DNA of 64,000 nt. Origin: Cyanidioschyzon merolae (Eukaryota). Below, piece by piece: positions 4,902 through 52,030 of this stretch; within the stretch, counting starts at the first letter, position 1; each line of letters opens with the position of its first letter. The notes under the pieces are model-generated. The model worked only from the letters and a program-made list of their open reading frames with translations, was not told the origin of the DNA and searched no databases. Position numbers and translations under genes: made by a program. The DNA lies in the NCBI GenBank assembly GCA_000091205.1, contig AP006492.2; one strand, given 5' to 3'.

Positions 4902-5510
4902 CTATGATCCGCAGTTTGGATCGCAGGATGAATGGTTAGCGTGATCCGCAGTTTGGATCGCAGGATGAATGGTTAGCGTGATCCGCTGTCTAGGCCTCCG
5001 CAGCGGTGCCAGCGCCCAGGGCGGCATCACTTCCGCCGTGCCTGTAATCGTCAGTGAAACTATCGGTACCCCAGCTTGCTTTGCGACCCGAAACGGGCGC
5101 TGTTTGAAAGCACGGAGCATCCCGTCTTTCGAGCGCGTGCCCTCCGGAAAAAGCAACAGCGACACCCCGCGTTCCAGTCGCGAAACCATTTCTCGAAAGA
5201 CCCGCAGTTGATCCCGTCGACTATCCCGCTCAATCCCGATTTGACGAGCCATGCCCACCGCCCAGCCGATACTAGGGATCGCAAAAATGCTTCTTTTGGA
5301 GACAAACTTGAAAAACCGGCCTAGAAACGACACCGTGTAGATGTCCAGGTACGAATTGTGATTGCACACATAAAGCACAGTGGCATCAGGCGGAAGCAGA
5401 TTCTCCGTACCAACGGCACGCTGATGAATACCAGTGCTCAGCATGGACAGTCGCATGCAGAGCATCGCGATCCAGTCGTAAGCGCGCGCTCGGTATGGAT
5501 CACGGATCAT
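4902..5510 (-). CDS. 1-acyl-sn-glycerol-3-phosphate acyltransferase (PlsC/LPAAT family), apparently lacking the N-terminal membrane anchor
   Basis: The acyltransferase motif I is present as VCNHNSYLD (NHxxxxD) and motif III as FPEGTRS. The segment GTENLLPPDATVLYV upstream of the motif is typical of PlsC. The ORF starts exactly at the truncated end of Fanzor-like copy A. Its last roughly 25 codons are encoded by a 37-bp tandem duplication. Confidence 0.7.
   Translation of the reverse strand: MIRDPYRARAYDWIAMLCMRLSMLSTGIHQRAVGTENLLPPDATVLYVCNHNSYLDIYTVSFLGRFFKFVSKRSIFAIPSIGWAVGMARQIGIERDSRRDQLRVFREMVSRLERGVSLLLFPEGTRSKDGMLRAFKQRPFRVAKQAGVPIVSLTITGTAEVMPPWALAPLRRPRQRITLTIHPAIQTADHANHSSCDPNCGS
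4907..4990. repeat. Tandem duplication of a 37-bp unit 'atccgcagtttggatcgcaggatgaatggttagcgtg' (2 copies plus a partial third)
   Basis: The direct repeat is visible in the sequence. Its period is not a multiple of 3, and it forms the 3' end of the LPAAT ORF. Confidence 0.8.
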
Positions 5511-7469
5511 TCCATACGTTTCTTGCCGTTGGGAGTTGTACTCACTAATGCAAGGAGTCCATGAACTTTCGCCCTCCTTTCCATTTGCTCCTCCGTCAGC
5601 GGTCCGTACTGTGCTATATCCTCAGGACTCCGTTGGCATTTTTCCATCTCCACTCTCTGAAGTGTGCAACCAAGTTCATGGTGTGTATACGACGCTCGGA
5701 ACTCATCTACAGGTATTGTAACGAAACGCCGTGCGCACTCCCTGCATGTTCTTGTCGTTGGAGCTGGCGTAGTTCCTTTTTGGGTCTTCCAGCGCCCTGC
5801 CCCAAAAGCTACTACGAGCCTTAGACTCTCGTCCTCCTCCAAGGCGCTCAAGTGATTGGAAAAGATCGCGAATGCACGCTGCTTCCCACAGTACAAATTC
5901 ATTCGCAAACGAGCTCACCGAGGCTCGGTATACTCCTCCCACAGCGCATCCCAATGAGCAACGCGAACTTCCATGAATTCCCGAAAAGCTTCAAAGTCCG
6001 CGCCCTGGCTCGTCACCTCGCTCATAGCTTCCAGGTGATCCCTCATTCCTGCATTCCACGTCTCGATATTTTTCCTCGCATTCGTTATACGGGATTCTCG
6101 ATAGTATCTCGCTCTCGAGAACCTCAAAAGAAGCATATATTTCTGACGTATGTTGCCGTCGGTGCAATCTTCCGCACGCTTGGGTACAGCGATGGATATG
6201 ATATTCTTGTTCCAGGGGTTAAGGCCGACGACAAAGTCGTTCTCGTGGGGATTATACATCCAGTGGCCCGCCTTCTTGTTTCCGTGCTTCGGCAAGTGCG
6301 ATAACGTACACGGGATAGGACGAACTGCCTGCAACCGCTGATAGTCTACACATATGTATACCCCATCGTTGTCGATTGTCCCCGTGAATACCTTTTTTTC
6401 GCCGGTCTGGGACGCTTGAAATCGAAGATATTCTGCCAGTAGGAGTCCCGGTCTTCGCCGATGATTTCTTTGTTGCTCACACCGAGCGCTGGACTGATCT
6501 CCTTCATGAAGACGGAGAGGACTCTAGAGTCAATAGTAACAAAATGTGACTTGGACTCGCGTAAGCGAACGACAATGAAGCGCATCTGGAGAAGCGATTG
6601 AATGTCATCTCTCCAACGCTTCATTTTTTCCGTACTCAGCTCCATTTCGGCCTTGCGTTCGAGTTCTCGGTCCAAAAACATGAAGTAGGAGAGAATAAGG
6701 GGATAACATCTCTCTTCGTTTTTTCTCATATCTGACAATTTTTCTCTTGGGTTGACAAGCCCCAAGACCGAACGATGCTTTTGATGAGTCGCGCGAATTA
6801 CAGAAGCCCTATTTTTTCTAGAGCGTGATTTCCCCTTGTCGATGAATTCGATCTGCTGTTCATGCTGGCGATCGTCCTTCACACCGTCGATGACTGCCCA
6901 CATCCCTTCACGAAACAGGCCCGGGTACAGCGCAAAGACGGCGCGTGTCATGAAAAATTTGGGTATACGATCTTATTGTTCCTCACATTCGTGAGGAACC
7001 TCATTGCCCTGTATTCGTAGGTATCTGCGTCACCCCTGTATCGCGCACCGTAGAAGCGGGAGCTTGCGTAATTTTTCGGAGAGCATGGACTGTCTCATTT
7101 CTCCTCGATGTTTCGCAGGTGCCAAACATCAACTGGCTGACAAAGGTCATGTTGAAAACTTCTCCCGGAAACATCACTGTTTCGATGTGCATTGCGTTGC
7201 GGTATATCTCCCTCCGCAAATGCATCAGTCCCGAAAAAAGCGTTACAAACATAGCTTGAGCACGAATCGCCATCGTTTCTGAAGGCCTGTCGCAACGTTT
7301 CCTTGTATGGATCCTTAATATGCCCAAGAAGACAGAATTTCATCACCATTTCATCGATCAGTCGTCTTTCTTGCAACCTTTGACGAAGGGCCTCCCGTTT
7401 TTGCTTCTTCGCGTTAGCCTGTTCCTCTGCACTCGGCACTGTCCTTTGTTCTCTTCCGGCGGCCGGCAA
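5507..7469 (-). pseudogene. Decayed TnpB/Fanzor-like nuclease gene (copy A)
   Basis: Homology to copy B is spread over at least three reading frames. The frameshift positions differ from those in copy B, which argues for decay rather than introns. The C-terminal region carrying the RuvC-III motif and zinc-finger region is missing. Confidence 0.5.
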
Positions 7470-7644
7470 TACCGGTCATCCAGAACCCCATACCTCCAGT
7501 TGCATAAGTTTCGGTTTTTATATAAAACACTAGGGACGCTTCTGCTTTAAACGACGACAAATCAGTTAAATACTTTACCTTGAAGGTTGAAACACGATTG
7601 AAGTAAAACCTACACTTTGCTATCATTTGATCGCAAATACAACT
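5507..7644 (-). mobile_element. Fanzor/TnpB-like (OMEGA-family RuvC nuclease) element, copy A; 3'-truncated and frameshifted
   Basis: The fragmented ORFs 7095..7469, 7001..7327, 6346..6951, 5915..6334 and 5507..5908 are collinear and 55-75% identical in amino acids to the copy-B ORFs at 38399..40674. A RuvC-I-like motif FVVGLNPWNKNIISIAVP matches copy B's [18 protein letters not shown]. The upstream end shares 'ggttgaaacacg..gcaaatacaact' with copy B, with the boundary at about 7644. Homology stops abruptly at 5507, after KKRME, where copy B continues into the RuvC-III motif. The element is roughly 48% GC against roughly 60-65% in flanking genes. Confidence 0.55.
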
Positions 7645-7859
7645 GGCCCCGACACAGCTGTAGGCCAAAAAGTGGCCATTATCGCGTTTCTCTTCGCCGG
7701 CGAGACAGGTTGCGTGTTGTGACGGCCAGATATCGTGGTGCGCGTACGGGCCATATAATACAAAAAAAGAACGGAGTGTGGCCAATTACTTGCAACGAGG
7801 TAACGGTTCCTTTTCACATCTATTGCAGACCTTGAAAAGAGGAACCTTTTGCTCATGGT

Positions 7860-8340
7860 CTAACGATTACCTTCGAGGTGGAAGGTCCCACACACCGGAA
7901 GACGCTACCTGCTTTTGCTCCGCGTGACTCTGAGTGGTGGAGAATGTGACGCACCTGAGCGTCTCGTCCGAATCGCGTTTGGTTCTGGGACTAGGAGCGG
8001 ATGTGCTGCCTATGGGCGTCACCTTGGTCGCGGTGGACTCCTAGGATACCGCTTCGCGGTACCGCAGGCTGAAGGTCTGCATGTACAGCTTGGAGGCTCC
8101 CAGAAATGTAAATAGCCCTGATTCCGTTTCGCGTGAACCAAGCCTCTTCCGACGCCCTCAGTGGTATTGCGAAGCCGTTCTGTCACCGTGGTGCATTAGC
8201 ACCAGCGGTGTAGGTGCTATTCCGGGTGCTCAAGGAAGGTTAGGTGCACCGTTGAACGTGCGAAACAAGCAGTTCATTCGAGAGAAAGTAGGGGTGATGG
8301 AACGTGGAGAAAGAGTGCAGCATGAGGACGCATTCCCGAA
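7860..8340 (+). repeat. Interspersed repeat R1 (SINE-like), copy a
   Basis: The head 'ctaacgattaccttcgaggtggaaggtccc' and core 'ccgacgccctcagtggtattgcgaagccgttctgtc' match the other R1 copies. R1d, for example, reads 'ccgacgccctctgtggtatagaaaagccgtcctacgtc'. It lies about 215 bp beyond the upstream end of Fanzor-like copy A. Confidence 0.6.
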
Positions 8341-9217
8341 AGCCAATATCGATCAGGCAATCTGGGATATATGGTCAGTGGAGACGTTCTGTCGAACCAA
8401 AGAAAGCATAGCGCCGGAGGGAATTCCCTAATGGCTCTGGTGTTCGACGCATCGCCTTGGCAGATGCATATGCGCTGAAATCATCCCGCAGGAGGAAATT
8501 CCCTTATACTTCCGCTGGGCCGGTGCCCGCGGGCGGCAAACGTAGCACTTGCGCGTTTCCACTGCATGATTGACACGCAGTTACCGCCGTGGAGAGGCAC
8601 ACGTTAAGCTCGTTTGGAGCAACTGACCAGCTGCAGTCATATATACGTATCTCATCAACGGAGCGTCTTCAGAGACGTGAGCAAAGACGCGCAGGTCGTT
8701 TTGCGCTAAGCTTTAGAGGCTCGTGCGCGGTCTAAGATAGACGTCGACGCGCCGGTGTTGAGGAGAACGAAAACAGCGCCCTTGTGTGTGTAGTTGTCTG
8801 TCGAAAGACGAACAACTTCACTCCAGTAGAGCGTAAACGGGCGCCCCGGAGTCACGGATTTTGAAACTTGAGAAAACACTGGTGCGAAAGCACTCGTCTT
8901 TTCCACGGACTACACGCGTCACGGCGAGAGCGGGGCTCGTTGCTCATCAGTCGCGGCCGGGACGATTCTGAACCACGGAGACGTGAGTGCTACAGCCCAG
9001 TACACTGGATCAAGCGTTGAATGCACGTGCTCCTGGGGATATTGATAACGGCGCTTCTGATCGCCGCTGCGTTCTGGGTCGCATTGTCGATGGTGCGTCT
9101 GGAACGGCGCCTTGCGGAGCACGAGCAGCAGGCAACACAACGTTTATTGGAACCGCGTAAACCTGGTGAGCGCAGCGTGCGCGCGGAAACGAGCACTGCG
9201 CTCTCGTAGCAATACAT

Positions 9218-15046: not shown

Positions 15047-17329
15047 CTGCAGTCAAAAGCACGTCCAGCTCGGTGCGGTGAAATCTGTCGCTCCGGGACA
15101 AGTGTTGCGCTAGATTGGCCCGCTTGTGAGCGAAACGGCCAGTCGTCAATCGCGCAGATTGTCCACTATGGGTGTCAATGGGCAGTTACGTGGCGCGGTG
15201 CTGTCGAAGCCGAGACGCGATTATCTGGCGGTGCCAAACATAGCTCCTATGTCCGTTAGGATCATATAGTTCCATAAATGCACTTTCCGCGATGCGCTTG
15301 GATCATGGACGTGCCTCCGGGGCGGGGGCGTATCGCGCGTTCGCGCTGGTGCCCCTCGAGCGCTGGTTCCGTTCTGCGGTACGCAGCGAGGCATCTGAAC
15401 GCGAGTCCGATCGATGCGGAACTCGGACACGTTCGCTCTGTTCCCGCGACTTGGTTTGTTCTCCGAAAATTTTCTAGATGCATAGTCCTGAAATTTGATG
15501 CGCAGCGAAAATCTATTATGGACTCATATGCAGTTCTCAGATGCTCGAACGTATTTTCGGATTAGGTTCTGTTGACGTTCTGCGACTGCTGGCAAGCGAT
15601 GCGTGACCGGAATCGAGATGATTCGCGGCGCACTCGAGCAAGGATTCATGAAATAGCTAATATTGCTGTGCAATGCATACGTTTTGGCGTTTACCTCTCT
15701 CCCTTTCTTACGTTTAACATGCGCACTTCGCACATTCATCGACGTTTGGATCTTTCTCTTTCAAGGCCAGTCGCGGGCGCAACGAAGCGCGGCCATGGAT
15801 TGACGCAGACAGCTACTGAAAATCGTCTGTAAACGACTTGCTCTCCAGCTCATCAAGAGAATTTGCAGAATGTGTCATGTCCAATAGCAATCTCCATTCG
15901 AAACACATACCTTCATTTGGTACAGGTTATCTGCAACACCGCATTTGGCAGCTGCATGATGGCTCTCACGAGATACGCTTCAAGAGGTTCGCGTCGCTTT
16001 TCTTTGTATGCAAAGGAGTGCTGCGCTCGAAATTTGGACATCGCAACGATGCTCTTCGGTAAACAGACCGTCACCGATATGTTGGAATGAAGTACCGACA
16101 GACTGAAATTTTATGGTTTGTTCCCTAGGCTGTTTGTTCCTTCCAGCACTTGTTTCATCCTGGAGAACATTGTGTTTTACGAATCCTCTATTGAATGAAA
16201 CAGCAAGCAGTCGCTTGTGCAAGTCGCAGAGACAACGCAGATACCTGCTGCATGCGCGGAAACATTGCAAGGCATTGCATGGCGCCACGTGCACCAGTCA
16301 AAGGCACGTATCGACCGATCATAGGAGCGTTCACGAGCCACCGGGTGCTGGTCAGATGAGCGGAGGGTTTCGCGGAAATGCGGGAACACCCGCACACAGT
16401 CAAGCCACCGCTGCGAAGACGCACCGATGCAGTATACAAAGATAGAGAGAATGACAAACGAAGCATAGATAGGGGCGGGTGACTCTGCATGAAATGCGTT
16501 GACCACAAGCGGAAGCAGCTCAGTGGGGACGTTAACGCTGCCATCAAGATTCCGCCAATGCTGATAGCGGAACTGGTGGGAATGCAGTTACCAACGTATT
16601 CGAATATGGAGACTCGTATGCGAAAAACAAGGTACAGTGGCAGCGGAACCCTGCAAACACCAGTATTGGTGCTAGAGCGCAGAAACAAAACCTATATTGT
16701 GTACGCCCGACTCTGCGAACCTGCTCTATGTTAACCGAACACGGCAGTATCCAGAATCCCTGAATGCGCTGCTGCGGTATGCAAGCCAATGAAACAGAAA
16801 ATGTCCAACGAGTTTCTAGGGTAAATGAATGACTACCCGCTGACGCCTTCCAGCCTTTTTCGACCGGCCGCCTGCTGTCAGCTTCAGTTTATCCAGGTAT
16901 ACACTGAGCTCGAGAGGCCGACCGAAAAACCTGCATCGCGTCAGTTTCAGAGGTCTCGTCTTCAGCACCGCACATCATCTGATACTGATTGCACCTTTCA
17001 AAGTCTCGGTTCATGAGCTCCTTGCGTTTTTACTGCCGCCGGCAGAATTCACCAGCGCAAGGACTCGTCGAACTCGTGCCCTCGGTGCCATTTCCCGCCC
17101 TGCCAGCTCTCTGTGCTTTTCTGTCGCCAAAACGGTCCGCTGGCTTCTCTCCATCTCGAACTTCAAAAGTGTACACCCTGGTTCATTCCTTATTCATGAA
17201 AATGAATGCACCCCTTTAAGCACTCGGGTGAGGAATTTCGCAGCAGGAGAGGCACTCGCGGAAGACAGACAAAATGTGCCCTGGCGTCACCGTGTCTTGA
17301 ACGCCTCGGCGATTCGTACAATGGACCGA

Positions 17330-19249: not shown

Positions 19250-20580
19250 TAGCTTTGTAGGGCGCAGAATTCTGGAAGCTGCGATCGCGACCCAGATCGG
19301 ATGGAGAACCATAACCGGATACGAACGACCTCTTTTCCTAAACAGTACATCTCGTGGCCGTATCCGGCTGACGCAGGGGGTGGCTTTGATTTTGCGAGCG
19401 CTCATACAAGTAGTGCATGCGCAGCACTGGTTGTCGACAGATACCAACAGCGATGCGTCGCACTGTTGTGCAGCGTGCTGCCCCGGTATCCGCGTCATTG
19501 CAGATACCGCTGAACCCGGGAGTGGAGTGACCGGTACGTTATGGTGAGGATCGCGCTTACCCGGAACACAAAGAATCCTGCAATTCATGACAAGGGGCGG
19601 CGTCTGTGCGTACATATCCATGTCCAAAGCGAGAGCACTTGCCTCCAAGCCATAATTTTGTGTCCAGAAATCGCATCCGTGGTCTACAGCAGACGCGGAT
19701 AAGCGCAAGCGTCGAGACGCTGGCTTGACTCTATACCGGAACTACAACCTCGCATACACATGCAAGTACTGGTGGGAGGCGCTGGAATTCCCGGGACTTG
19801 CTCGAGGTACCCAGTGGCTCGCGAAAATCCGCGTTGATGGCTTCTGGCTACCAGCACGGGCTCTAAGCCGTATAGGGACACTGGAATCGCACTGGGAATC
19901 ACACTGTCCCTGCTATCGAGACGAAATCCCCGAGACGCTGACATATTTAGGCTTACAGTGCCCGCGCTGGAAGCAGGAGCGCAGCGAGCTCCTTGCAGGA
20001 CAGCAGCAGCTGGACATCACCGTGATAGGCGAAGGCCGGACAATCACTTTGAGTGCAGCACTGGCAACTGATGGTCCGCTAACCGAGCCTCAACGCTCAT
20101 TCGTGGCCAATAAACTCACATGCTACCTTCTAGGCAGCAGGTCCAGCGAAGCGGATGCGTACACGGGCACAGTGCGCTTTCTGCGCCTACCTTCTGTGGT
20201 GGGTGTCAAGCACAAATCCGCATTTCCAACCGACAACAACGCATTCCATGCATGATCACCAAGGAGGGAGGCGACTCCCTCGATTTATCCTAACAGCCAA
20301 GTTTCTCCAGCGTGTTGTGCAGCGAAGGCAAGCCTGCATCCGCAGACTGTCCGAGCACACACTGACGACGAGACCCGATTCTACGTCGGGTGAACCACGC
20401 CTTGAGCCGACGCCCTCTGGGGTATAGAAAAGCCGTTCTGTCTCTATGATGCATCTGTACCAAAGGTAAAGACGCCATTGCGGACTATCTTGGCAGGCAT
20501 TAGGTGTGCGATAGAACGTTTGAGACGACCAGTATATCCGAGAAAAAGTATAGGTAATGTAACTTGGACGCATTGGGTAG
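19250..20580 (+). mobile_element. 5'-truncated non-LTR (LINE-like) retrotransposon 3' fragment, terminating in the R1 tail module
   Basis: ORF 19725..20255 contains HWESHCPCYRDEIPETLTYLGLQCPRWKQER, which resembles the C-terminal zf-RVT (C-x2-C ... ET..H....CP) motif of non-LTR ORF2 proteins. An upstream ORF contains a degenerate YPADAGGG that is possibly derived from the YADD box. The 3' 350 bp carry the R1 core 'ccttgagccgacgccctctggggtatagaaaagccgttctgtc' and the R1 tail 'gaccagtatatccgagaaaaagtataggtaatgtaac'. Confidence 0.35.
20230..20580 (+). repeat. R1 repeat, copy b (LINE-3' variant with an alternative head)
   Basis: Its core and tail are shared with R1d/e/f. The head 'cctaacagccaagtttctccagcgtg' is shared only with copy c ('ttctaactgccaagtgtctccaaggc'). 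Confidence 0.55.
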
Positions 20581-32133: not shown

Positions 32134-35100
32134 GTCCAGCACGCTGTGCACAGTGCTCGAGAGCCTGCACACAACCAACGACATTCGTCGCTGGTTTGAT
32201 GGACTCCGAGCATTTCAAAGCAGCAAGAGTGTCGTGCGGCAGCTCTAAGGGTCATCATGGCGTCGATTGCGCGCATGAAGGGTACGGAAGTTCGATTGTC
32301 GAGGCCGGAACGCTAGCCTGGTGGCGGATGACACGGATCACGACGCAGCGCATCGTCGGCTTGAGACCGCCCGGAACGGCAGTTCCTCAGTCTGGGTACA
32401 CCTGCATCATCAACACGCTTCGTTGACGCTGGAGAAGAGACTGATGGCGATTGTTGGTAACGTTGTGCGGTGGATGTGGCGCTCGCCCTACAGTTTAAAG
32501 TTTTCGGGATTGCATTTTTTGTGCTTAAGGTTGTTTTTAGAAATCGCATCACTTTAGGACTCGAATACGCAACAGTGGGCCGGTACGCTAGATTTTGCGA
32601 GCTAGAACTTTGGACACGAGCGCGTCGTAGGGACCCCGTATGGTCGTAAAGGTATGGCGTGCACCCCGTACGGAAACGGAAACGAGACACCGCGCGGTGT
32701 GTTGTTATCACGATTGTCAGGTTCTATCATACGTTGTACATAAAGGTCAAATCATGGGACGTCATGGTCGTTCGCCATGTACCGAAAGGAACTGGTCTTA
32801 GCGTACATGACCTGCGCTGCAGCCTCGCTGGATTGCTGAACCGCATCACGCCGGGGCATCGCTCCAGACAAGAATCCAATGTAATGAGGCGTACCCACTG
32901 GTTTCATGATCCCAAGTGAGCAGCGTTTCAGCACAATGCCCTCACTGAATACGAAATGAATCCCTCAAGGGCTCGCCTGAAAGCAAGAAGCTGGACGCTC
33001 GGGAAGCTCGAACGATTTTCCGGAATTTTGATCGAGCATACGGCGTCTCGATATAGAAGGTGCTTCCGCGCATCGCTGCTGCTAGAATGATACCCAAGTT
33101 AGCCGCGCATCCGCGATTGCCTCGGCATCTGCTCTTCGATCAGCGTACCGTGCGCCATCTCGTGCGTCCGCCTCTGTTCCACGTTCGTCTGTTCTATCTG
33201 TTCCAGCGTGCACCTACGCTAGTGATTTGTTGATTTCGTCCGGATCGCATCGATGAGAATCGAGAACGATGGCGTCCTGGAAGCGTTGTACACTTACGTC
33301 AGTGGAGCATGCGTACAGCGTTTGAGCGCTGCAGCATGCCGAGCGCAATGGATACCCACAACTCAATGCGACATAGCGGCCATTTCCTCATCCAACTCTT
33401 TGAACAAGTTGCCGAATGCAAGTTTTTCGTCAAAGTACAAGTGAAACAATTGGCGGCCCAACACGTTTTCATATATTCCTGCGAAAAATCGTCGACGTGC
33501 GCCGTTTCAACGCCCATTTACGCGCTTGATCAAGCGTACGAAACATCCACCTCTGCTCTATACGGTGCTGAGGACGTCGATATCAAAATCCTGGCGTCGT
33601 CACGCGCCATGCTGATATGCTTCCTGGCATTCAGTGTGCCCGTCCCTCGATAAATTCGGAACCGCGCATACGTTGAGCAGGTTCATCTGCTTTCCAATCA
33701 AGTTTCTGGCGTTGTGCTCTTGGTTTCGAGGCACGACGATCTCCTTGGTGACCGTCGCTCCAGGAAACACGCTCATCACAAAGTGCTTCTCTTCATTGAC
33801 ATAATTCCGTTGAAATTGTGTCCCGTTGCTCCACGCAGGCCTGAGCTTCACTGCGTGCATATAGATCGGTGTTCCGTCGCTCTCCATCGTACTCATATAT
33901 TACGCTTCACGTACTCCTCGTAAACATGAAACATTGAACGAGCTCCGCCGGTGCACTCTGCCATGGTGTTTGAATGCTTCATACTTGCTCGCAGAAACGA
34001 TCTCCTTATCCGCTTCCACCATTGCGTGGGCGGATGGCATGCATGTGATCTTCATTCTCTAAATCCACTTTTTCCATGGTTTCAGACATAATCGGGGACG
34101 ATGGCGCTCGAGCTCGCCTCTTCGATATATGGGTCGAGTATTCCGCAGGTACTTTGCGTCACCTTCTCTGGAGCGGGCACGCCTATGGGCCGCAGCGCGA
34201 CTTTCCGCCCCGCCCTGCGTACGAGCAGGAGTTCCTTAGCTCGCTTCAGGGCTAGCACAGCGAAAGAATGGTTCGTAAACGAACATTGCCACGGATGCGA
34301 ACGACTCGTCTATTGATCTGTGAGCATCAAATTGGTGTTGGATAACAGAAAAGACGCCTTCGACTGGACTGAATCAGAAACAATAGACTGCACCGGAGTG
34401 CAGCGCAAAGTCGAACTATGCTGTGAAATATTGCACGGTTTTTGGGCGATAAAAAGTGACCTCGACATAGCGCATGACAGACGAGCATCGGACGGCGACG
34501 GCACGAAGCATGCATCGACAAAACGTCATATGATGAACGATCTTTTCTGTTGGACGCTTCATAGGCAAGCGCGCGACTGAGTCGGCTACGAGGCCCATGA
34601 TTTCGAAATGCTTGCTCGTCGCTTCTTCATGATGAGCAGATTTTCCCGCTTTGAGTACCCCGAGAAAGGTCTACGATTTCTCCCGAATGAAGTTTCATTG
34701 AGCAAGACGAACACCTGCCGCTCCTGTAATACGCGTTCACGTTTCAGTGCGAAATCAATCGGTTGTTGTTCGATGCACGACGCTCTCGAGCAGAAGCAAG
34801 CCTTATCGCGTTGTCCATCGGTTTCTTTTCTTCACCTTTCATAGCACCGGTAGAGACGCATCATATCGCGTGGCTCGTTTCGACTTCATTTCATCATAGA
34901 TTGTATGAAAAAGAAAGGATTGGCGAAGAGACATTCGCGCGGCAAGCGTTTGATAATTTCTGATTCAGTTGCACAACGTTCAGGGTATTGACTACCAGAA
35001 CGGTGGTTCATCCATCTGGTTCATGTGAAATAACTGACTTAAGCAATAAATCCCGTTTTTCGCGAGAGACCAGTGACACCATCGATTCCTTCCTCAACCA

Positions 35101-35444
35101 TTCCCCAATCTACAGGATACGTTTCTTCTGTTGAATTCCTGTAAGAAAAACAAACAAAAGCGGAAAAGCGTGCACTGATAAGAGCATTATGCAAGTCACT
35201 ACGCTTCCCCTAACGCTAGGCTCCGAACACGACCGCGACGGTGTATTCGCCTCGGTGGTCTTCGCTCTGACCCCAATCCATGGAAGCGAGCCGAATGCAT
35301 GTACATCGAGACGCAGCGCGTTCACGTGGTCAGCATATCCAGAGAAGCAAACCTGATGTGCGTAGACAGCTGAGGAGGCGTCGCTGCATCGGCTGCTGGG
35401 GCGCAGATTTTGCCCATTGTTGCAGCGCGGACAAGTGTTCCGAA

Positions 35445-36028
35445 TTCTCGAAAATTTACCTTCTAGGTGGAAGGTCTCGCGAGCCGGACGAGCCTGCCGG
35501 GCATACGCCCTGTGCGCCTCTGCAGCGACCGATGCTGTAGGGAGATCTCCGCTGCCCCTCGGCAACGTAATCAATCTGGGGCTCGCAGCGAGTATGCTGC
35601 GTTTCCGCGTCGCGCAGGTCGCAGAGGACTCCGAGCATATCGCTTCGCGCTATCGCAGGCAATACGTCTGTATGCGCATCTTGCAGGCTCCCTGAATGAC
35701 AATGAATCCCGAATCCATATCGTGCAGAACACGCCTCGAGCCGACGCCCTCTGTGGTATAGAAAAGCCGTCCTACGTCCGTGATGCATCCGTACCAAAGG
35801 TAAAGACGCCACTGCGGACTATCAGGGCAGGCATTAGGTGTCCGATAGAACGTAGGAAACGACCAGAATATCCGAGAAAAAGTATAGGTAATGTAACATG
35901 GAAGTAGGGCGTTTGAAGGATACTTCACCTCGCACTAAAAAAACACAAAAAAAAAGTAAGAAAAGAAAAATGCGCGTGATCGGAGAACGCTGGCACAAGT
36001 ACACCTTTTGTCCATGAAAAAAAAATCG
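35445..36028 (+). repeat. R1 repeat, copy d (most complete copy, with an A-rich tail)
   Basis: Head 'ttctcgaaaatttaccttctaggtggaaggtctcgcgagccggacgag'. Core 'cctcgagccgacgccctctgtggtatagaaaagccgtcctacgtccgtgatgcatccgtaccaaagg'. Tail 'gaccagaatatccgagaaaaagtataggtaatgtaac...aaaaaaacacaaaaaaaaagtaagaaaagaaaaatgcgc...gtccatgaaaaaaaaatcgg'. It ends 408 bp upstream of the bZIP ATG. Confidence 0.6.
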
Positions 36029-36435: not shown

Positions 36436-38151
36436 ATGAGTGAGGAGCGTGTGCATCAAAGCTCACCGCCTGCCTGCTTTAGAGGACCAGAATCAACGCC
36501 GTCTGTTTCGTCCACCGACGAACTCGCTGGTACGAAGCGTGAGCACCTTGTAGACTCGGAAAGGAGTTACCTGCAGCTGCCGGCGCTGACGGATCACTCC
36601 GATCTTTCGCTTGCCAGTTTACCCCTATTAGTGCAAGTCTCGGACACCCAGTCAGGGGATAGCGCGAAATCTGACTCGGAGCGAGCTTATGCACTAGTGC
36701 ACGTGTCACCTATTGCGACGGTTCGGGAGGTAAAGCAAGAGCTCGTGAAACAGGGTATAATCCCTGTCGAAGATCTACCTTCGGTGCAGCTGATATTTGG
36801 AGAAGAGACGTTATCGGAAAACTCCCCTTTAACAGAGTACTTCCTTCCGGAACTCTACGACTATTCGGAGGCATTGCTGCGAATGATTGATCAAGGAGGA
36901 CTCGACGTGGAGCAGAAACATGAAGCCATGGAGCGCGCGCTCCAAGTGATAGGGAGTATGCGCGATGGAATCTCCTCGGGCCGCGAGTCCAGCAGCACGA
37001 AGCCATCTGTGGCAAGTGCGGTTCAGCGCGCGGCAGCGCCTGGTAGCGAGCGACTTCAGCTGCCCGGAATCGACATGCTACCGCGGCCGTTAGGAACGAG
37101 CGCCGTCCATCTCGAGAACGAGGGCGCTACCGACGTTGTGGCAACTAGAAACGTTTCACCCGGGAAGGGCGTGACAGCAGCGCCTCTATGGTCGCCTATG
37201 CTGCCGTCTTTGTCGCCCACAGGAGCCAGCGTCATCGCAACCGAACCGTATGCGCTCTGGACGCCAATGCAGCTGAGCACGCCGATGGATATGGCCGAAA
37301 GGTTACACATGCTGGAGCCGAGACTTTTCACACCTGAGGGTGTTTCTGCTGTGGGGGCGTTCGTGCCGCTTTCAGCACGTCTGCGGCAGCAGAACGGGGG
37401 CCATTCCGCCCGTCTTATCGCGCAAGAGCCGGCTCTTCAACCAGGCGGTGGAGCGATAAGTGGCACCTCCTCCTTCGTCGACGCTAGAACACGCTCGCTG
37501 GCAGAAGCAGGACCGCTCGAATCCTCAGTAATACGGGGATCAGAAGCTCCTTGTGACATACCCAAGAAACGTGCAAAATACGCGAGGGCCGCGTCCGGAG
37601 CGCGAACCAGCACAGCGGGTAGCTCGTACTCGAGCGATATGACTGGACAATCACGCTGCGATCAGGACTGCGAATCTCCGCAACCTGGCGACGCAAGCTC
37701 CCTAGCGAGGAGCGGACCCCATGAACACACGGCGTCCGTTCAGAGCGCCGCGAACCAGCGTCTTGTTTCGAATTTGAAAAATTTACCGGATCGATGGGTC
37801 ATGGAAGGCGCCCACGAGGGCCAGGTCCCTGTTCGCGGTCGTAGCCAGGCGAGTCAGGGAACAGAGGCGTCTTCGAGCGACAGCCGCCCAGTACGGCTTG
37901 CGAGCCTGTCGCCCGAAGAGCGCCGCCGGCGCCGCATGGAGCAGAACCGCAAAAGCGCGGAACGCTCGCGCTTGCGCAAAAAGGAACTCGAACAGCGATA
38001 TCGTGCGGCGGTCCGTCAGCTTAGTGAAGAGAATGCTGAGCTGCGTCGACAGCTCGACTCGTTTCGCGAACAAATTCAACGAATGCAGCAGCTACTCGCG
38101 GTGCAGATGCGAGCGACATCCGCACCGCTGGACACACCGTCGCAACAGTAA
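36436..38151 (+). CDS. bZIP transcription factor with a possible N-terminal ubiquitin-like segment
   Basis: The C-terminus RRRRRMEQNRKSAERSRLRKKELEQRYRAAVRQLSEENAELRRQLDSFREQIQRMQQLL carries the N-x7-R basic-region signature NRKSAERSRLRKK followed by heptad leucines. Confidence 0.8.
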   Translation: MSEERVHQSSPPACFRGPESTPSVSSTDELAGTKREHLVDSERSYLQLPALTDHSDLSLASLPLLVQVSDTQSGDSAKSDSERAYALVHVSPIATVREVKQELVKQGIIPVEDLPSVQLIFGEETLSENSPLTEYFLPELYDYSEALLRMIDQGGLDVEQKHEAMERALQVIGSMRDGISSGRESSSTKPSVASAVQRAAAPGSERLQLPGIDMLPRPLGTSAVHLENEGATDVVATRNVSPGKGVTAAPLWSPMLPSLSPTGASVIATEPYALWTPMQLSTPMDMAERLHMLEPRLFTPEGVSAVGAFVPLSARLRQQNGGHSARLIAQEPALQPGGGAISGTSSFVDARTRSLAEAGPLESSVIRGSEAPCDIPKKRAKYARAASGARTSTAGSSYSSDMTGQSRCDQDCESPQPGDASSLARSGPHEHTASVQSAANQRLVSNLKNLPDRWVMEGAHEGQVPVRGRSQASQGTEASSSDSRPVRLASLSPEERRRRRMEQNRKSAERSRLRKKELEQRYRAAVRQLSEENAELRRQLDSFREQIQRMQQLLAVQMRATSAPLDTPSQQ

Positions 38152-40825
38152 TCCATTGAGGTCCCTACGCTTTACTTAGAGCTTTTCGTTCGCTTTTAAG
38201 CCGAGACGGCAGGTTGCGCAACGTCATCGAGTTGTAGACGCGCACGAATAGCGAGTGCTTATTTCTCGACACGATGAAACTGGATTCGGAAAATAGATTC
38301 ATGAACTAAAGAGTGAACTGATTCCCGATGGAGGCCGAACGCCGTTCGAAAGTCGAACGACGGCAGTGCACCGTAGTGGCGAGAAGGCCGCCCTAGACTT
38401 AACGACTCCAACTGGCGTACTGACGCTTCCTAGGCTTTCTGGACCGGCCACCCACTACTGATTCCAACTTCTTCTCATATAAATCAACTTTGAGAGGTTG
38501 TCCAATAAAGTTCTCTCGTGTCCGCTCTGGAGGTCTTTTCTCCAGCACCGCGCATCTCCTGATATTGATAGCGGCGTTGAAGTCTCGGTTAACGAACTCC
38601 ATACGCTTCTTGCCATCATTGGTTGTACATACTAATGCAATGAGTCCACGAACTTTTGCCTTCCGTTCCATTTGCTCTCCCGTCAGCGGTCCGTACTTTG
38701 CAATTTCCTCAGGACTCCTCTGGCACTTTTCCATCTCCAGGCTCTGGAGTGTGCACCCCAGTTCATGATGTGTATAAAATGTTCGAAACTCATGGATCGG
38801 TATTGTGACAAAACGCCGTGCACACTCCTTGTACGTTCTTGTCGTCGGAGCTGGCAGAGTTCCTTTTTGGGTGTTCCATCGCCCTGCTCCGTACGCTACT
38901 ACAAGCCTCTGTCTTTCATCCTTCTTCGAGGCGCTCAACTCATTGAAAAAATTCGCGAACGCCCGCTACCTCCCACCATATAGATTCGTACGCAGACGAG
39001 CCCACCGGGGCTCTGTATACTCCTCCCACAGCGCCTCCCAATGGGCAACAAGAACTTCCATGAAATTCCGAAAAGCTGTAAAGTCCGCTCCTCGGCTCGT
39101 CACCTCGCTCATAGCTTCAAGGTGATCCTTCATTCCTGCGTTCCACGTAACGATTTTCTTCCTTGCATTCATTATACCGGATTCTCGGTAGTATCTTGCT
39201 CTGGAGAACCTCCAAAGGCGCATGTCTTTCTGACGTAATTTGCCGTCAGTACCATATTCCGCACGCTTCGGTGCTGTGATGGTTATGATATTCGTGTTCC
39301 CAGGGTCTGCGCCGACGACAAAGTCGTTATCTTGGACTCTCTCCGTCGCAGGACCCGCCTCCTTCTTTTCTTCATGTTTCGCCGCGCCAACGACAAGGTC
39401 GTTATCCCGCACCTCCTGCATTGCAGGACCCGCCTTCTTCTCATCTTCATCCTTCGTGACGGGCGCAGCCAAAGGCGGACCAGCACGATCTTTCTACAAC
39501 CGCCGATAGTGTACACACAAGGCTACTCCATCGGTTTCGATCAACCCAGTGAACCACTTTTGCTCGCTCATTTTGAGACGTTTGAAATTGAAGATATTCT
39601 TCCAGTACGTTTCCCGGTTTTCATCGGAGAACTCCTCCCTGTTACCATTGAACTCCGGACTGATCCCCTTCATGATGCCGTAAAGGACTCTGGAGTCGGT
39701 ACTCACGAAATGTGACTTGATGTTGCACATTGGAACGACGTTGAAGCGCTTCCCCATTGGGACAGCCTTCCGTCTCTCCCACTCTTCATTTTTTTTCCCC
39801 ACTCAGCTTCATCTCTGCTTTGCGCTCGAGTTCTCGGTCCATGAACACGAAATACCGTACGACGAGGCGATCGTATCTTTCCTTATCTTTTTTCATGTCT
39901 GATATCTTGTCTGTTGGATTCGCCAACCCAGTACCGCACGATGCTCTTGAATAGCCGCACGGATTACAGAAGCTTCATTCGTGCTCTCGTTTGACGCCTT
40001 CTCGTCGACAAATTCGACCTCATCTTCACGCTTGCGATCTTTCACGATGTCGTTGATAATCGCCCATTTCCCATGGCGAGAGATGCCCTGGTACAGCGCA
40101 AACACGGCGCGTATCATGAAACGTTCGGGGTTCACTGTCAAATGGTTCTTCAGATTCGTGAAGTACTTCATTGCCCCGTCTGTGTAAATATCCCCGTCAC
40201 CCTTGTATCGAGTACCCTCGAGGCTGTAAAAGGGATGTTTTTCGTGGAGAGCATGCACTAGCTCATTTTGCCTCCTCGTTTCCCCTGTACCAAGCATCAG
40301 GTAACGAATAAAGTCTTATCGAAAAACTCGTCCGGAATCTCGACCGTTTCCGTGTGCGTCACGTCTCCGTACATCTCCCTCGCCAAATGAATCAATCCTG
40401 ACGACACCTCGACAACACGCTTGGAGTACGAGTCGACACGTTTTGCTGATACCCTCTCGCAACTTTTCCCTCTAGGGATCCTTGATATGTCCAAGACGAA
40501 AAGGTTTTCACCATAATATCGTCGTGCTGTCGTCTTTCCTGCAGCTTCTGACGTTGGACCTCTCCGTTTTGCCTCTTCGTCTTGTATTGTGGCTCCGGGC
40601 TTGGTACTTTTGTTCGTTTTTTTTCTGGCAGCCGGCGACACCTGTCTTCCAGGATCCTTCATTTCCATGTCCATAGCTTTCCTTTGTTATTTTTTTGAAG
40701 AAGAGCGCACATGAAACGCGTTTGCTGTACACCGCGGGAAAGCACTTGAGTACACGCATTTGAGGGTTGAAACACGGTTGCACTGACAGACTATACGCTG
40801 CTAGGGCTTTAATGCAAATACAACT
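38152..40825 (-). mobile_element. Fanzor/TnpB-like (OMEGA-family RuvC nuclease) element, copy B; the more complete copy
   Basis: The ORF series 40297..40674, 39893..40297, 39494..39802, 38966..39472 and 38399..38938 reconstructs a roughly 700-aa protein. A RuvC-I-like motif reads [18 protein letters not shown]. The C-terminus has a TnpB-like Cys-containing helper region (EFRTFYTHHELGC...EKCQ) and a RuvC-III-like motif FVNRDFNAAINIRRC. Its upstream boundary at about 40825 is defined by homology to copy A ending after 'gcaaatacaact'. The low-GC 3' flank 38152-38398 presumably holds the right end of the element. Confidence 0.6.
38399..40674 (-). pseudogene. TnpB/Fanzor-like RuvC nuclease gene (copy B), interrupted by at least three frameshifts and an internal 20-codon tandem duplication
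   Basis: See the mobile-element entry. The frameshift sites differ from those of copy A. A duplicated peptide [20 protein letters not shown] / [21 protein letters not shown] lies immediately before RuvC-I. Confidence 0.55.
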
Positions 40826-41033
40826 CGTACGTTATAGCAATACGCTCATATTAAGGATCGCGTTTCCCAGTTACGGCAAGATGCGCTTTGCGTCTCATGC
40901 ATGCCAGATATGGAGATGCGCGTCTTGACTGCGCTCTAAAATAAAGAGCGGATAGGAACCTCTAAATACCAACTATATAACAATTTCTGGCCCCGCCTGC
41001 GATAAACGTTGAAAAAGGGAAAAGCTTACGGTA

Positions 41034-41640
41034 TTCTCGAAAGTATACCTTTTAGGTGCAAGGTCCCGCGAGCCGGACGATTCTGCCAGGGTTGTGCCTC
41101 ATGGTCGCCGCAGTGCTTCGTGCTGTAGTAAGATCTGAGCAGTTCGTCCGAAACGCAGTTGATTCTGGTACTCGTAGCGGGTATGCTGCACGTGGGCGTC
41201 GCTCTGGTCGCAGTGGACTCCTCGAATATCGTTTCGCGCTGCCACCGGCACTACGTCCGTCTCTACTGTTTCCACGCTCCCGGAATAATAATGTACTCCA
41301 GACCACGTGTCGGATGCATCATAATTCGATCCGACGCCCTCAGAAGCATGGAAAACCCGCCCTGACTTCGTGCTGCATCTGCCGCAGCGGTCTGACCGCA
41401 GACGCGGGTGCCCCAGACAGGCAAGACCCCCGATAGAACGTAAAAGAACGATCAGTATTTTCGAAAGCAAGTCTGAATGATAGACCTTGGTACACCAGCA
41501 TGACGAACGCTTTGTTTCGATTACCAGTACGCATCCCGCAATCTGGGATCCTTCGTCAATGGAACCGGTTTATCAAGAGTAGAGAAGATCACAAGCAGCG
41601 TGGCCGCCGCCTGCCTGACACAGCGGCTACACGGCCTACA
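41034..41640 (+). repeat. R1 repeat, copy e
   Basis: Head 'ttctcgaaagtataccttttaggtgcaaggtcccgcgagccggacgattctgccaggg'. Core 'ccgacgccctcagaagcatggaaaacccgccctgac'. Its extended 3' part, 'gcatcccgcaatctgggatcc', is shared with copy g ('gcatcccgcagtctaggatcc'). It lies about 210 bp beyond the upstream end of Fanzor-like copy B, separated by a spacer homologous to that of copy A. Confidence 0.55.
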
Positions 41641-41728
41641 GCATTGCTGTTTATCGACGCGCTGCCAAACGGACGCGCAGGGACTCGTCGTACGCGTTAC
41701 ACTCTCTCGGTGGAAGCACACGTTTCCA

Positions 41729-42115
41729 ATGGCAACACGACACATGCTTTGGATGCTTGGACGTTATATTCGAAAGGTGCCTTTAGGGCGTTTGGGTGAC
41801 TCGGCACGGGCGCGAGCGCTGTCAAGCAGCGCGGCGCGCGGGCATGCCTCCTCTTCGCACGTCGCTGGCTCGGAAGGTGCACACGCGAACGCTACGTTTG
41901 AACGCTGGCGACTGATGAGCGCACTCGGAGCACTACCCGTTCTGATCTACGGTGTATGGCTGTTCCGGCAGCCGCACGAGCACGCAGAGCCGCCGCCTCC
42001 GTACCCGTATCTGCGGAGGCGGGTGCGCGATCCAGCTTTTCCCTGGGGCAACCACGAGCTGCTGGGCACGCCCTGGGATCATGAGTCGCCCCACGCTCAC
42101 ACAGACTCTGAGTGA
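41729..42115 (+). CDS. COX6A: Cytochrome c oxidase subunit VIa (COX6A). The start is uncertain, because the ORF opens at 41600 inside the R1e tail.
   Basis: WRLMSALGALPVLIYGVWLF is a single TM helix. It is followed by PYPYLRRRVRDPAFPWGNHELLGTPWDHE, which matches the COX6A signature (hlriRtKpfPWGdGnhtlFhN). Confidence 0.55.
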   Translation: MATRHMLWMLGRYIRKVPLGRLGDSARARALSSSAARGHASSSHVAGSEGAHANATFERWRLMSALGALPVLIYGVWLFRQPHEHAEPPPPYPYLRRRVRDPAFPWGNHELLGTPWDHESPHAHTDSE

Positions 42116-45079: not shown

Positions 45080-45690
45080 AGCCCTGTATGCCCAGCGACA
45101 CGCTGATCGATGCTCTTGTCATCAACAGAGCGACTATAGAAAAGACCGGGGATATGCGATTTCATGCCTGGTATCAGCAAATGGAAAAGCGTTCATCGAT
45201 CCAGAGCCTATATCCGAGTCCCATGTACGCGTCAATCAATCGCCGGCTTCGCGTACCGCGTTGCACCCGAGCGCTAGCATCTTGCGTGCGTTGGGGTGCG
45301 CGCGCCGGCACGCACCTCTCGATGCGTGCCGGCGCATTCGGGCGGGCGATGCTGCGAGTAACGCCTCTGCTGCTGCCGAGCATGCAACAGGCGATGCGTC
45401 CTCGAGCCGACGCCCTCTGTATGGTACGGCAACGCCGTTCTGTCTCCGTGCAGGGACCGCACCGGCGCTATAGGCGCTATTGCGGTCGCCGCTTTCGGCA
45501 GGCACTAGGCACACACGATAGGACGTATGAGATGACCAGAATATCCGAGATGAAGGATAGGTAATGTAACGTGGGAGTAGGGGATTCGGTGGATACTTGA
45601 CCGCGCACTGAAAAAATAACACAAAAAAGTAGGAATAGAAAAATACGCATTATCGGAGAACGCTGGCCTAAGTAAACGTTTTGTCAATGA
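45080..45690 (+). repeat. R1 repeat, copy f (head partly degenerate)
   Basis: Core 'cctcgagccgacgccctctgtatggtacggcaacgccgttctgtctccgtgcaggg'. Tail 'gaccagaatatccgagatgaaggataggtaatgtaacgtgggagtagggg...gcgcactgaaaaaataacacaaaaaagtaggaatagaaaaatacgc...gtcaatgaaagaaaaactgg'. Confidence 0.55.
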
Positions 45691-46761
45691 AAGAAAAACT
45701 GGCAACACGTATGATGCAGAATGACACGGTGGGCGTGCTTGCCCCGATGGTATCTCGCGTTTGGCGTCGAGCCCTGGCGTGCGTCTGTGCGTGCCACGCG
45801 CGTCACGTAAGCGATACATGATGCTGGTGTGTGCCTCTGCCCACGGGACGCTCCCGTGTCGAACGGCGGGCCGCCTTCACGAAGCGTCTGCGCGGAGCCA
45901 ACACCCAGGTGCCTCCAGAAGGGTACGCAGAGACCAGTTGACCTGAGGCAGCGCTTGCGCCAGTACGGACGCGTTTCTGGTGCATGACCGCAGCGCTACC
46001 CCTATCGGATACTTGTCGTTGGTGTTGGTCGGCACAGCGAGCCGTACGAGTGTGCGTTCCGGCGCCTGTCGCGCTCAAGAGAACCCTGTATGGATAGCGC
46101 CAAGCGTGCGATACCCGGTTCCGAGGCCAGCTTCCATGACGCCGTATAGCCGTCCCGCCTCTCCGTCAGGCAACAGCAGCAGCGCACCCGGCTGCACAAC
46201 AAGTATCTACGATAGGCTCTGCATTCGTGAGGTCGATGGATCGCTCGAACCCCTATATCCCAGATAATGCCTTTTCCATACGTCGTGCTGTACATCCATC
46301 TATGGACAAGAAGTGTACTCGATTCCGCACCTGCCTGCGGAAAGCGCCGCCAGCACCAGCAGCTCGCGCGCCCTTGTTATCATGGTGAAAGTTCAATGAA
46401 ACGTTCCACGGCATCCGCCAAGCAAAGTCGTTCTCAGCATGACGCAAGACGTGCACCAAGCTGCACCAGCAAAAATTACCGCTCATGCTTGCCTGTGGAC
46501 GTCTCATCTTGGTGTCGCGCTGGATCATGATACCGGTTACCTGGCGCGCGAGATGCGCCAGTGCCACACAGCGGCGCGCGTGTGGCCAGCACGACGCCCC
46601 GCTCCGCCTCCCTGCCCTGAACGTATCGTGTGTCGAGGGGCAGGCATCGCTGCGTACTAGCACTGGTACCAGGTGCGAGCAGTCCGGTGTGACTTCGCTT
46701 TCCAGGCGTACGGGTGTTGTGTCTGTGACGATACGCACGGTGGTTTGCAAAAAATCGCAAA

Positions 46762-51174: not shown

Positions 51175-52030
51175 GTATTCGAGTGTTACGCTTCTGGGGG
51201 CAGGAGGCCCCGCGAACCGGACGAGTCTACCGGGCTTGCGCTCCGTGTGCCTCTGCATTGCCGGGCTCAGGAGCAAGACGCAAGGAACTCGTTCGCCACG
51301 CAGTTCATTCTGGGACTAGGAGCGGTTGGGCTGTCTCTGGGCGTCGACCTGGTCACGGAAGTCTCCAAGCATATCGCTCCACGCTGCCGCAAGCTGAAGA
51401 GCTGGCTGCGCAACTCGCACGCTCCCAGCAGGACGAAGAGGCCGGATTCCTTGTTCAATGAACCACGCCTCGAGCCGACACCCCCAGTGGTGTGGCAAAG
51501 CCGTTCTGACTGGGTGCTCCATTCGCACCGGCGGTACAGACGTTACGGTGGGTGCTCACTGGATGCGCTCAGTCCACGACAGATCGTATCGAGCGACCAG
51601 TCCATCCGAGAGCAAGGATCGGAGATGGAACTTGAAGGTACACTGAAGAATAATGGACGCTTTTCTTAATCTCAATATGCATCCCGCAGTCTAGGATCCA
51701 CGCTCCAAGTAAACGTTCTGGATGAACAAACGCAATCCACAAGGGTCGTCTGCGCCGCTGTGCCGCTCCGGGAACGCGGCAGCGATCCATGCAATCGCCC
51801 AGCTCGCTTGCAACGCATGGCGATCGTCCCGGAGGCGCGGCCGGAGCGGCAGCTCAAGGCAACGAAGGGCGAGGCGAGGCAGCGCGGTGCGGCAGGCGCC
51901 ACCGGCGGCGATCGCATCGATCACATGCACCGCGCACTGAAAAACCCCCCAAAAAGAAAGGCAAAATGCGCATCATCGGAGAACGCTGGCCTGAGTGAAC
52001 GTTTTGTCCATGAAAAAGAAAATCGATCGC
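51175..52030 (+). repeat. R1 repeat, copy g (with a duplicated or extended 3' region)
   Basis: Head 'gtattcgagtgttacgcttctgggggcaggaggccccgcgaaccggacgagtctaccgggc'. Core 'cctcgagccgacacccccagtggtgtggcaaagccgttctgac'. Tail 'gcgcactgaaaaaccccccaaaaagaaaggcaaaatgcgcatcatcggagaacgctggcctgagtgaacgttttgtccatgaaaaagaaaatcgatcgc'. The tail overlaps the first codons of the SAS-6 ORF. Confidence 0.55.

Follow-up and report, generated by a model that had tools for sequence, protein, structure and literature searches.

What element left the series of collinear, broken open reading frames (ORFs) on the minus strand at positions 38152-40825 of a 64,000-nucleotide stretch of chromosome 10 of the red alga Cyanidioschyzon merolae 10D, and could this copy still work? 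An earlier note, made from the letters of this stretch (below, the window), had taken the pieces, here called copy B, for a RuvC nuclease gene of the TnpB/Fanzor type, inactivated in this copy, in a multi-copy element of an algal nuclear genome; profile searches, a predicted fold and the map of lesions all agree with that proposal. Judged by the published description, copy B is very probably a decayed copy of CMe-1A, a mobile element whose only gene encodes Fanzor1. CMe-1A is the sole Fanzor1 family listed for C. merolae 10D by Bao and Jurka (2013, Mobile DNA 4:12; PMC3627910), who counted about 150 copies with an identity of about 80% to a consensus of about 3 kb, without terminal inverted repeats (TIRs) and with undetermined target-site duplications (TSDs). 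In the same survey, the 5′ 635 bp of CMe-1A corresponded to a separate repeat, TE-N2_CMe, present in about 70 copies, and some CMe-1A copies were still intact (PMC3627910).

The window matches this description in genome (10D), element length (about 3 kb), identity between copies (about 80%), lack of TIRs, a 5′ stretch of about 635 bp in common with TE-N2_CMe, a Fanzor1 ORF standing alone and the decay of the majority of copies. There is no essential difference, copy B being one member of the family, as recognized by the published description. Since all these features fit CMe-1A, the finding is a rediscovery: host, copy number and odd structure of the family have all been in print since 2013, and the present work mainly confirms that a Fanzor element is recognizable from raw sequence. 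Beyond the 2013 description it places the right end exactly, defines a conserved, structured 3′ module of 82 nt, shows that the C4 zinc finger has been lost and distinguishes at least three 5′ contexts, in one of which an inverted TE-N2-like end abuts the core; a tandem repeat of 25 aa, variable in copy number, is also new.

The identity of the locus, its family membership, its decay, its true ends and the conservation of structure at its 3′ end are what the analysis demonstrates. The element is present in multiple copies in a eukaryotic genome, the window alone holding two copies (A and B) and two more Fanzor1-like fragments. Metagenome contigs carrying C. merolae-like sequence yielded at least 220 related stretches; several of these contigs are 98-99% identical to the window itself, and 79 loci were retrieved from the set for comparison.

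The protein of copy B and its family

As had been envisaged, the collinear minus-strand pieces rebuild one protein. Stitched from the three-frame translation, it has 759 residues and is encoded at 38399-40674, from an ATG at 40674 to a TAA stop codon at 38399-38401. The reading frame is interrupted by three frameshifts and two in-frame stops. The first frameshift ends the first ORF piece (40297-40299), the second lies at the AVLG/LANPTDK junction (39893-39930, near 39930) and the third at the SGEKK/NEEWERRK junction (39786-39802, near 39790); the stops fall between RRL and KDR (39494-39496), where relatives have Lys, and between YGGR and RAF (38966-38968), where they have Gln or Lys. The frameshifts were placed by three-frame translation and comparison with P0006, a near-intact relative that reads through all five breaks in a single frame, so these are real lesions. 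Because of them copy B is unable to make the Fanzor protein and is a genomic fossil; the last ORF piece (179 aa) is unbroken, and no ORF piece of copy B has an NCBI entry in the 10D annotation.

Decay is the rule in this family. A search of the related loci for intact full-length copies, as the earlier note had suggested, found a near-full ORF in only 1 of about 80 loci sampled, and most sister copies are broken, at differing places. The statement that both copies in the window are frameshifted at different sites also holds, copy A being broken elsewhere than copy B. Between copies, the ratio of non-synonymous to synonymous substitutions over the last 168 codons is about 0.24, which suggests past purifying selection on the family and a coding capacity retained for a long time; the sample consists of stop-free, gap-free copies and is thus biased downward, which counts against this reading of the ratio. 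One part of the protein varies in length. An in-frame tandem repeat of 75 bp (25 aa; 1.9 copies at 39309-39450, minus strand), detected by Tandem Repeats Finder and by a blastn self-match, stands directly ahead of the RuvC-I strand and re-duplicates the start of that β-strand. The unit is repeated in tandem two to five times across copies (P0002, P0006 and P0010, with four to five units in P0002 and P0006) and is absent from the distant intact relatives P0112 and P0120.

The resemblance of the repaired protein to its closest homologues is far above chance (E = 7e-227). A database search from it returned 188 relatives, of which the close ones are 63-89% identical and largely fragments, and two, of 676 and 699 aa, are intact, with 45% identity to copy B. 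Searching again with the intact P0112 gave a broad set of proteins of 600-700 aa with 32-64% identity. The clade comprises 6427 representative clusters at E ≤ 0.001 and 891 at 1e-30, and the precomputed Pfam label of the close relatives is PF26935 (DUF8286).

The assignment of this clade was approached through a family profile and a structural model. The profile (A1), built from 111 relatives and searched against the PDB sequences, matched three distinct sequences, all of them Fanzor1: PpFz1 of Parasitella (E = 1.9e-18), SpuFz1 of Spizellomyces (7.6e-11) and GtFz1 of Guillardia (0.0026). Nothing further appeared below E = 10, and phmmer with the single repaired protein found nothing relevant among the PDB sequences. 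The fold was modelled on P0112, which is 45% identical to copy B, and not on the broken protein of the window. With the A1 alignment as input, the AlphaFold2 model had a predicted local distance difference test score of 91.8 and a predicted template modelling (TM) score of 0.88. The top seven Foldseek matches in the PDB were chains of SpuFz, GtFz and PpFz (E from 2.5e-17 to 3.4e-15, probability 1.00, TM 0.52-0.75); Cas12f came next, far behind (E from 1e-4 to 1e-3, TM 0.2-0.35). The checks proposed earlier, a search with Fanzor profiles and a structure prediction, thus both turned out in favor of a Fanzor protein, and by profile and predicted fold the family of copy B is Fanzor1. Fanzor2 and IS607-type TnpB were considered and set aside, the profile and the fold recovering Fanzor1 chains only and the element encoding no serine recombinase.

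The catalytic residues agree with this assignment. In the profile alignment, the RuvC-I Asp (GAD-PG; family position D398, in 111 of 111 relatives; codon at 39305-39307), a non-canonical RuvC-II Glu (IH-E-FRT; E569, 111/111; 38789-38791) and the RuvC-III Asp (NR-D-FNAAINI; D636, 110/111; 38582-38584), all on the minus strand, fall on D777, E935 and D1000 of the SpuFz1 chain. With its 394-residue tag subtracted, they correspond to D383, E541 and D606, which Xu et al. (2024) named as catalytic in SpuFz1. The canonical RuvC-II site is occupied by an invariant Gly (G536, in AYG; 111/111), with the invariant Glu 33 residues downstream, and such a rearrangement, with an inert canonical site and an alternative Glu further on, has been reported for Fanzors. 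All three codons (D, E, D) are retained in copy B. The RuvC-I, helper (...EKCQ) and RuvC-III (FVNRDFNAAINIRRC) motifs picked out in the earlier note are all present, its DPG and NRD blocks aligning residue for residue with SpuFz1 D383 and D606.

Two results weigh against a plain assignment to this group. The Pfam models of TnpB that had been proposed as a check, OrfB_IS605 and OrfB_Zn_ribbon, are silent: the repaired copy B has no Pfam match at all, and the sole match among five relatives scanned is to PF07282, below threshold (12.1 bits against a cut-off of 26.3). Prokaryotic TnpB was accordingly rejected as judged by the Pfam models, there being no above-threshold match for copy B or the five relatives; a more distant relative, P0237, bears a precomputed PF07282 match. 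The second is the zinc finger. The Fanzor signature of 2013 comprises a [TS]-[TS] pair followed by a C4 zinc finger ahead of the RD motif (PMC3627910), which is CCCC in SpuFz1, and in the A1 alignment the CCCC zinc finger of SpuFz1 and TnpB is not conserved in the clade. The family retains the [TS][TS] pair (T/S at 572 and 573; T-F in copy B); opposite C942 and C945 of SpuFz1 it mostly has H/D/Y and D/T, and a single Cys, C621, is kept in 74 of 111 relatives. Calling the region degenerate and Cys-containing, as had been done from the letters, was thus fair, because this clade has not conserved the cysteines that form the finger in SpuFz1 and TnpB. From the alignment, we read the loss of the zinc finger as clade-level variation and not as exclusion from Fanzor1, since the authors of the signature themselves placed the CMe-1 family in Fanzor1. 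The C. merolae branch has a pattern HH...C...C (P0112 positions 576-581 and 621) that might be a substitute metal site.

Compared with the characterized proteins SpuFz1, GtFz1 and PpFz1 (Saito et al. 2023; Xu et al. 2024), the family of copy B shares the profile and the fold over the WED, REC, RuvC and TNB regions, the same non-canonical catalytic triad and a short structured 3′ non-coding region in the size range of omega RNAs. It differs in being only 11-16% identical to them and in its unconserved CCCC zinc finger, and copy B is a pseudogene known from sequence, whereas those proteins have been characterized experimentally. With prokaryotic TnpB and its omega RNA (IS200/IS605, IS607), the common features are a mobile element with a RuvC nuclease gene next to its right end, the lack of a transposase in many copies and a structured RNA expected to overlap the 3′ end of the gene; in contrast, copy B and the five relatives scanned have no Pfam TnpB match above threshold, and the family has a relocated RuvC-II Glu, a eukaryotic host, an N-terminal basic stretch resembling a nuclear localization signal and no TnpA partner. 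Cas12f and other compact type V effectors resemble it distantly in the fold of the RuvC and TNB core, but the TM score is just 0.2-0.35, and the element is mobile, sits in a eukaryote and has no CRISPR array.

Extent of the element and its flanks

The limits of homology among copies define an element of about 3.26 kb (38333-41590, minus strand), CMe-1A-like, which consists of a 5′ TE-N2_CMe-like module, the Fanzor1 core and a structured 3′ end; this span fits the CMe-1A consensus of about 3 kb with its TE-N2_CMe 5′ 635 bp. On the 3′ side, homology to copy B ends at 38333-38340 in nearly all related copies (more than 50), and beyond this point each copy differs, so that the comparison of 3′ flanks proposed earlier does place the right end. 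About 66 nt past the stop codon belong to the element. The sequence that runs from the bZIP stop codon to the element's right end (38152-38332), where unrelated copies all differ beyond the terminal hairpin, is host spacer, because the copies stop being alike at 38333-38340. It had been suggested that the whole 247-bp stretch between the two stop codons was the ground for an omega RNA; this stands for its first 66 nt or so and fails beyond 38333. The bZIP gene lies tail to tail with copy B, 182 bp separating the element from the bZIP stop codon, and five proteins of the window match 10D entries in the series BAM80172-BAM80184 exactly, among them the "bZIP transcription factor" and CYME_CMJ329C.

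The 5′ side is less simple. The likeness between copies A and B fades at 40825, with weak similarity persisting upstream, and other copies are alike to about 40930. Position 40825 was therefore rejected as the left end, since strong likeness to other copies, and weak likeness between A and B, run on upstream of it. The boundaries first proposed, 38152 and 40825, are thus replaced by a 3′ end near 38333 and a 5′ end at about 40930 or, with the 5′ module, about 41590. The 12-mer gcaaatacaact, which had been taken for the terminus, occurs exactly twice in the window (7633 and 40814); it is indeed common to the two copies, but it does not end the element, as homology continues to about 40930 and about 41590. 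Upstream of about 40930, at least three kinds of sequence are found among copies, and copy B has the TE-N2_CMe-like kind. Its module (40931-41590, minus strand) starts with GATCTTCTC at 41590 and has no long ORF. In the subfamily of copy B the 5′ homology ends at about 41575-41590, with a shared start GATY(Y)n..CGATGACAAAACG at 41590. The module is about 68% identical to those in loci L001, L013/L015, L029, L030, L051 and L077, and likewise to window positions 35444-35789 and 7955-8209. In another kind, a TE-N2-like end abuts the core in inverted orientation. This variety of 5′ contexts, including the inverted one, accounts for the difficulty of fixing the ends in 2013.

Two points weigh against so definite an outline of the element. 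The true left end is blurred by the alternative 5′ modules, and the copies yielded neither TIRs nor, at the right flank, a TSD, a flanking motif or a target motif, just a weak G bias. Other types of element fit less well. A Helitron-like element would likewise have a 3′ hairpin and be free of TIRs and TSDs; it was rejected since there is no Rep/helicase gene and the termini do not fit 5′-TC...CTRR-3′, the left end beginning with GATY... and the right end being the hairpin itself, without a CTRR tail. An element of the IS200/IS605 type was rejected too, as the element has no HUH transposase and no second long ORF. In base composition, the guanine plus cytosine (GC) fraction is 0.497 over 38152-40825 and 0.50 for the element, against 0.55-0.62 in neighboring genes; the lower GC content described in the earlier note is real, and its figures (48% against 60-65%) are not.

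The structured 3′ end and its possible roles

The covariance model described below identifies a structured module at the 3′ terminus of copy B (38331-38409, minus strand; 68.4 bits, E = 8e-13), a candidate omega-RNA scaffold that forms the right end of the element. The module of 82 nt consists of the last 12 nt of the ORF and the 3′ tail. From 5′ to 3′ on the minus strand, it comprises a 5-bp hairpin across the stop codon (H1, 38395-38407), a GGCG...CGCC hairpin (H2, 38378-38393), the conserved single-stranded ACUACUGUACA (ACUACNGURCA; 38367-38377) and a terminal hairpin of up to about 19 bp (H3, 38335-38366). The core of H3, ccgttcgaaagtcgaacgacgg at 38342-38363, is the hairpin-capable segment already spotted in the letters, and it is conserved. 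The stem sequences differ by subfamily yet pair, CGTCGTTCGA/TCGAACGGCG in one case and CGTTTTTC/GAAAGGCG in another, and the outer H3 stem is rich in G-U pairs.

The model (R1), built from 15 copies with a hand-specified structure, finds 68 instances in the related loci and a single match in the window (38331-38409). Over 60 distinct copies, 78.7% of cells are paired, compared with 40-46% when the partners are slid, 23 of 30 pairs are changed on both sides, and the observed scores were reached by none of 500 shuffles; the covariation was counted on an alignment fitted to the same proposed structure, which inflates these figures and is the first of several points that tell against a conserved RNA scaffold. 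The others are that the 101-nt 3′ region of copy B itself folds no better than shuffles (z = -0.74), that RNAalifold on a MAFFT alignment of 42 right ends gave a trivial 4-pair stem only and missed the hairpins, because alignment by sequence alone puts the two main hairpin variants out of register, and that an Rfam scan of 37900-41800 had no match. On the other side stands the asymmetry of the strands, with a mean folding energy of -17.7 kcal/mol for the sense strand and -11.8 kcal/mol for the antisense strand, the sense strand being the more stable in 38 of 41 copies. Over the last 40-50 codons, moreover, the three codon positions are about equally conserved (0.83-0.87) and the usual third-position dip is gone, a hint that a constraint on the nucleotides extends into the ORF.

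Fanzor1 omega RNAs are 75-150 nt long, with one or more stem-loops ahead of the guide, and hence the module has the right place and size. Going by its position and conservation, we consider it a candidate omega-RNA scaffold, with slightly better than even chances of being one.

The main rival to this interpretation is that the terminal hairpin is chiefly a DNA-level transposition signal, read on single-stranded or cruciform DNA by a transposase acting in trans, as with the subterminal hairpins of IS200/IS605 and the 3′ hairpin of Helitrons; the same hairpin could serve both roles. The hairpin does lie exactly where copies cease to be alike, in an element without TIRs, a detectable TSD or a transposase; a common 3′ end with varied 5′ modules is what elements mobilized via their 3′ end display; and copies with quite different terminal sequence (L043, L014) keep a strong palindrome. 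Nevertheless, the G-U-rich stem and the greater stability of the sense strand point to selection on a sense transcript and not on duplex DNA, no HUH-type or other transposase gene is seen in the element, and its termini are unlike those of Helitrons, so that we view a signal of this kind as possible but rather unlikely.

An ordinary element of the mRNA 3′ end, acting in termination, processing or stability and having no guide role, appears improbable. In its favor, the structure is conserved on the sense strand, where the module spans the stop codon and a short 3′ untranslated region. Against this, the conserved structure stops exactly at the element boundary, where the scaffold of a TnpB or Fanzor RNA meets the guide, a scan of the 3′ region for bacterial-type promoters and terminators gave nothing useful and no terminator-like site, and the equal conservation of the three positions in the last 40-50 or so codons is as seen with overlapping omega RNAs. 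That copy B itself is functional or domesticated, through frameshifting, read-through, a truncated protein or a part in bZIP regulation, is scarcely credible: its intact catalytic codons, its unbroken 179-aa ORF piece and its place 182 bp from the bZIP stop codon are outweighed by five lesions spread along the ORF, by the absence of any piece from the annotated 10D proteome and by sister copies broken mostly elsewhere, as neutral decay predicts.

If the module is indeed an omega-RNA scaffold, an intact copy might work by analogy with Fanzor1 systems whose RNA-guided activity was demonstrated in other species in 2023-2024 (Saito et al. 2023; Xu et al. 2024). The ancestral ORF encoded a protein of about 680-750 aa with Fanzor1 architecture and the triad Asp, alternative Glu and Asp, in an element with no transposase of its own. 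An omega RNA would be transcribed from the 3′ end of the element, the candidate for its scaffold being the 82-nt module across the stop codon that ends in the hairpin of about 19 bp, and would read on into the flanking DNA, which would provide the guide. Protein and RNA together would then cut matching DNA beside a short motif (target-adjacent motif, TAM), and cleavage would favor the retention, copying or spread of the element. The scaffold role of the module, guided cleavage and the way in which the element moves are all inferences. More tentatively still, and with some doubt on our part, the module may scaffold the omega RNA of a large Fanzor1 clade without zinc fingers (DUF8286), and those rare C. 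merolae copies that are intact may be RNA-guided nucleases still active and suited to an alga of hot, acidic springs. If true, this would offer a heat-tolerant compact editor together with a genetically tractable host for testing how Fanzors serve their elements. The genome of C. merolae is very small and open to genetic manipulation, and an intact copy there could show what service a Fanzor renders to a transposase-less element.

Two side observations concern the 3′ region of related loci. In one subfamily (L057, L061 and L062) the 3′ module is lost and a short satellite of CGCACACACGCACGAATGCG-like units lies just past the stop codon. In locus L005 (2150-2215), near the intact P0112 of another organism, there is a strong hairpin about 25 nt past the stop codon (CCAGAG..GGAAAA...UUUUCC..CUCUGG), a single case, in a 101-nt region that is no more stable than shuffles (z = -0.67).

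Other copies and fragments

The second copy of the window, copy A (about 5510-8390, minus strand), has at least three frame changes and, within the aligned pieces, two stops. Its identity to copy B is 82% over the RuvC half and 68% over the N-terminal half. Copy A is cut off at residue 694 and is without the 3′ structured module, the covariance model finding nothing there. A much more divergent, heavily broken Fanzor1-like remnant (32923-34049 and 35444-35985, minus strand) shares 28% identity with P0112 over about 340 aa (E = 1.8e-27); some 1.4 kb upstream there is a TE-N2-like segment. The remnant may represent a second Fanzor1 lineage in C. merolae, for which the 2013 paper lists one family. 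An isolated C-terminal RuvC-III fragment of a CMe-1-like Fanzor (16840-17238, minus strand; 38% identity, E = 7.5e-19) lies inside a low-GC stretch.

Solo segments of the TE-N2-like 5′ module are found at 20363-20568, 45400-45698 and 51186-51640, 66-85% identical to the copy at 35444-36024; they have no Fanzor ORF or right-end module nearby, which fits TE-N2_CMe as a separate repeat. Among the related loci, L011, L012, L019, L031-L033, L037, L042 and L051 contain head-to-head pairs or an adjacent inverted partial copy, forming palindromes of a few kb, for which nested insertion, fold-back repair and assembly artefact are candidate causes.

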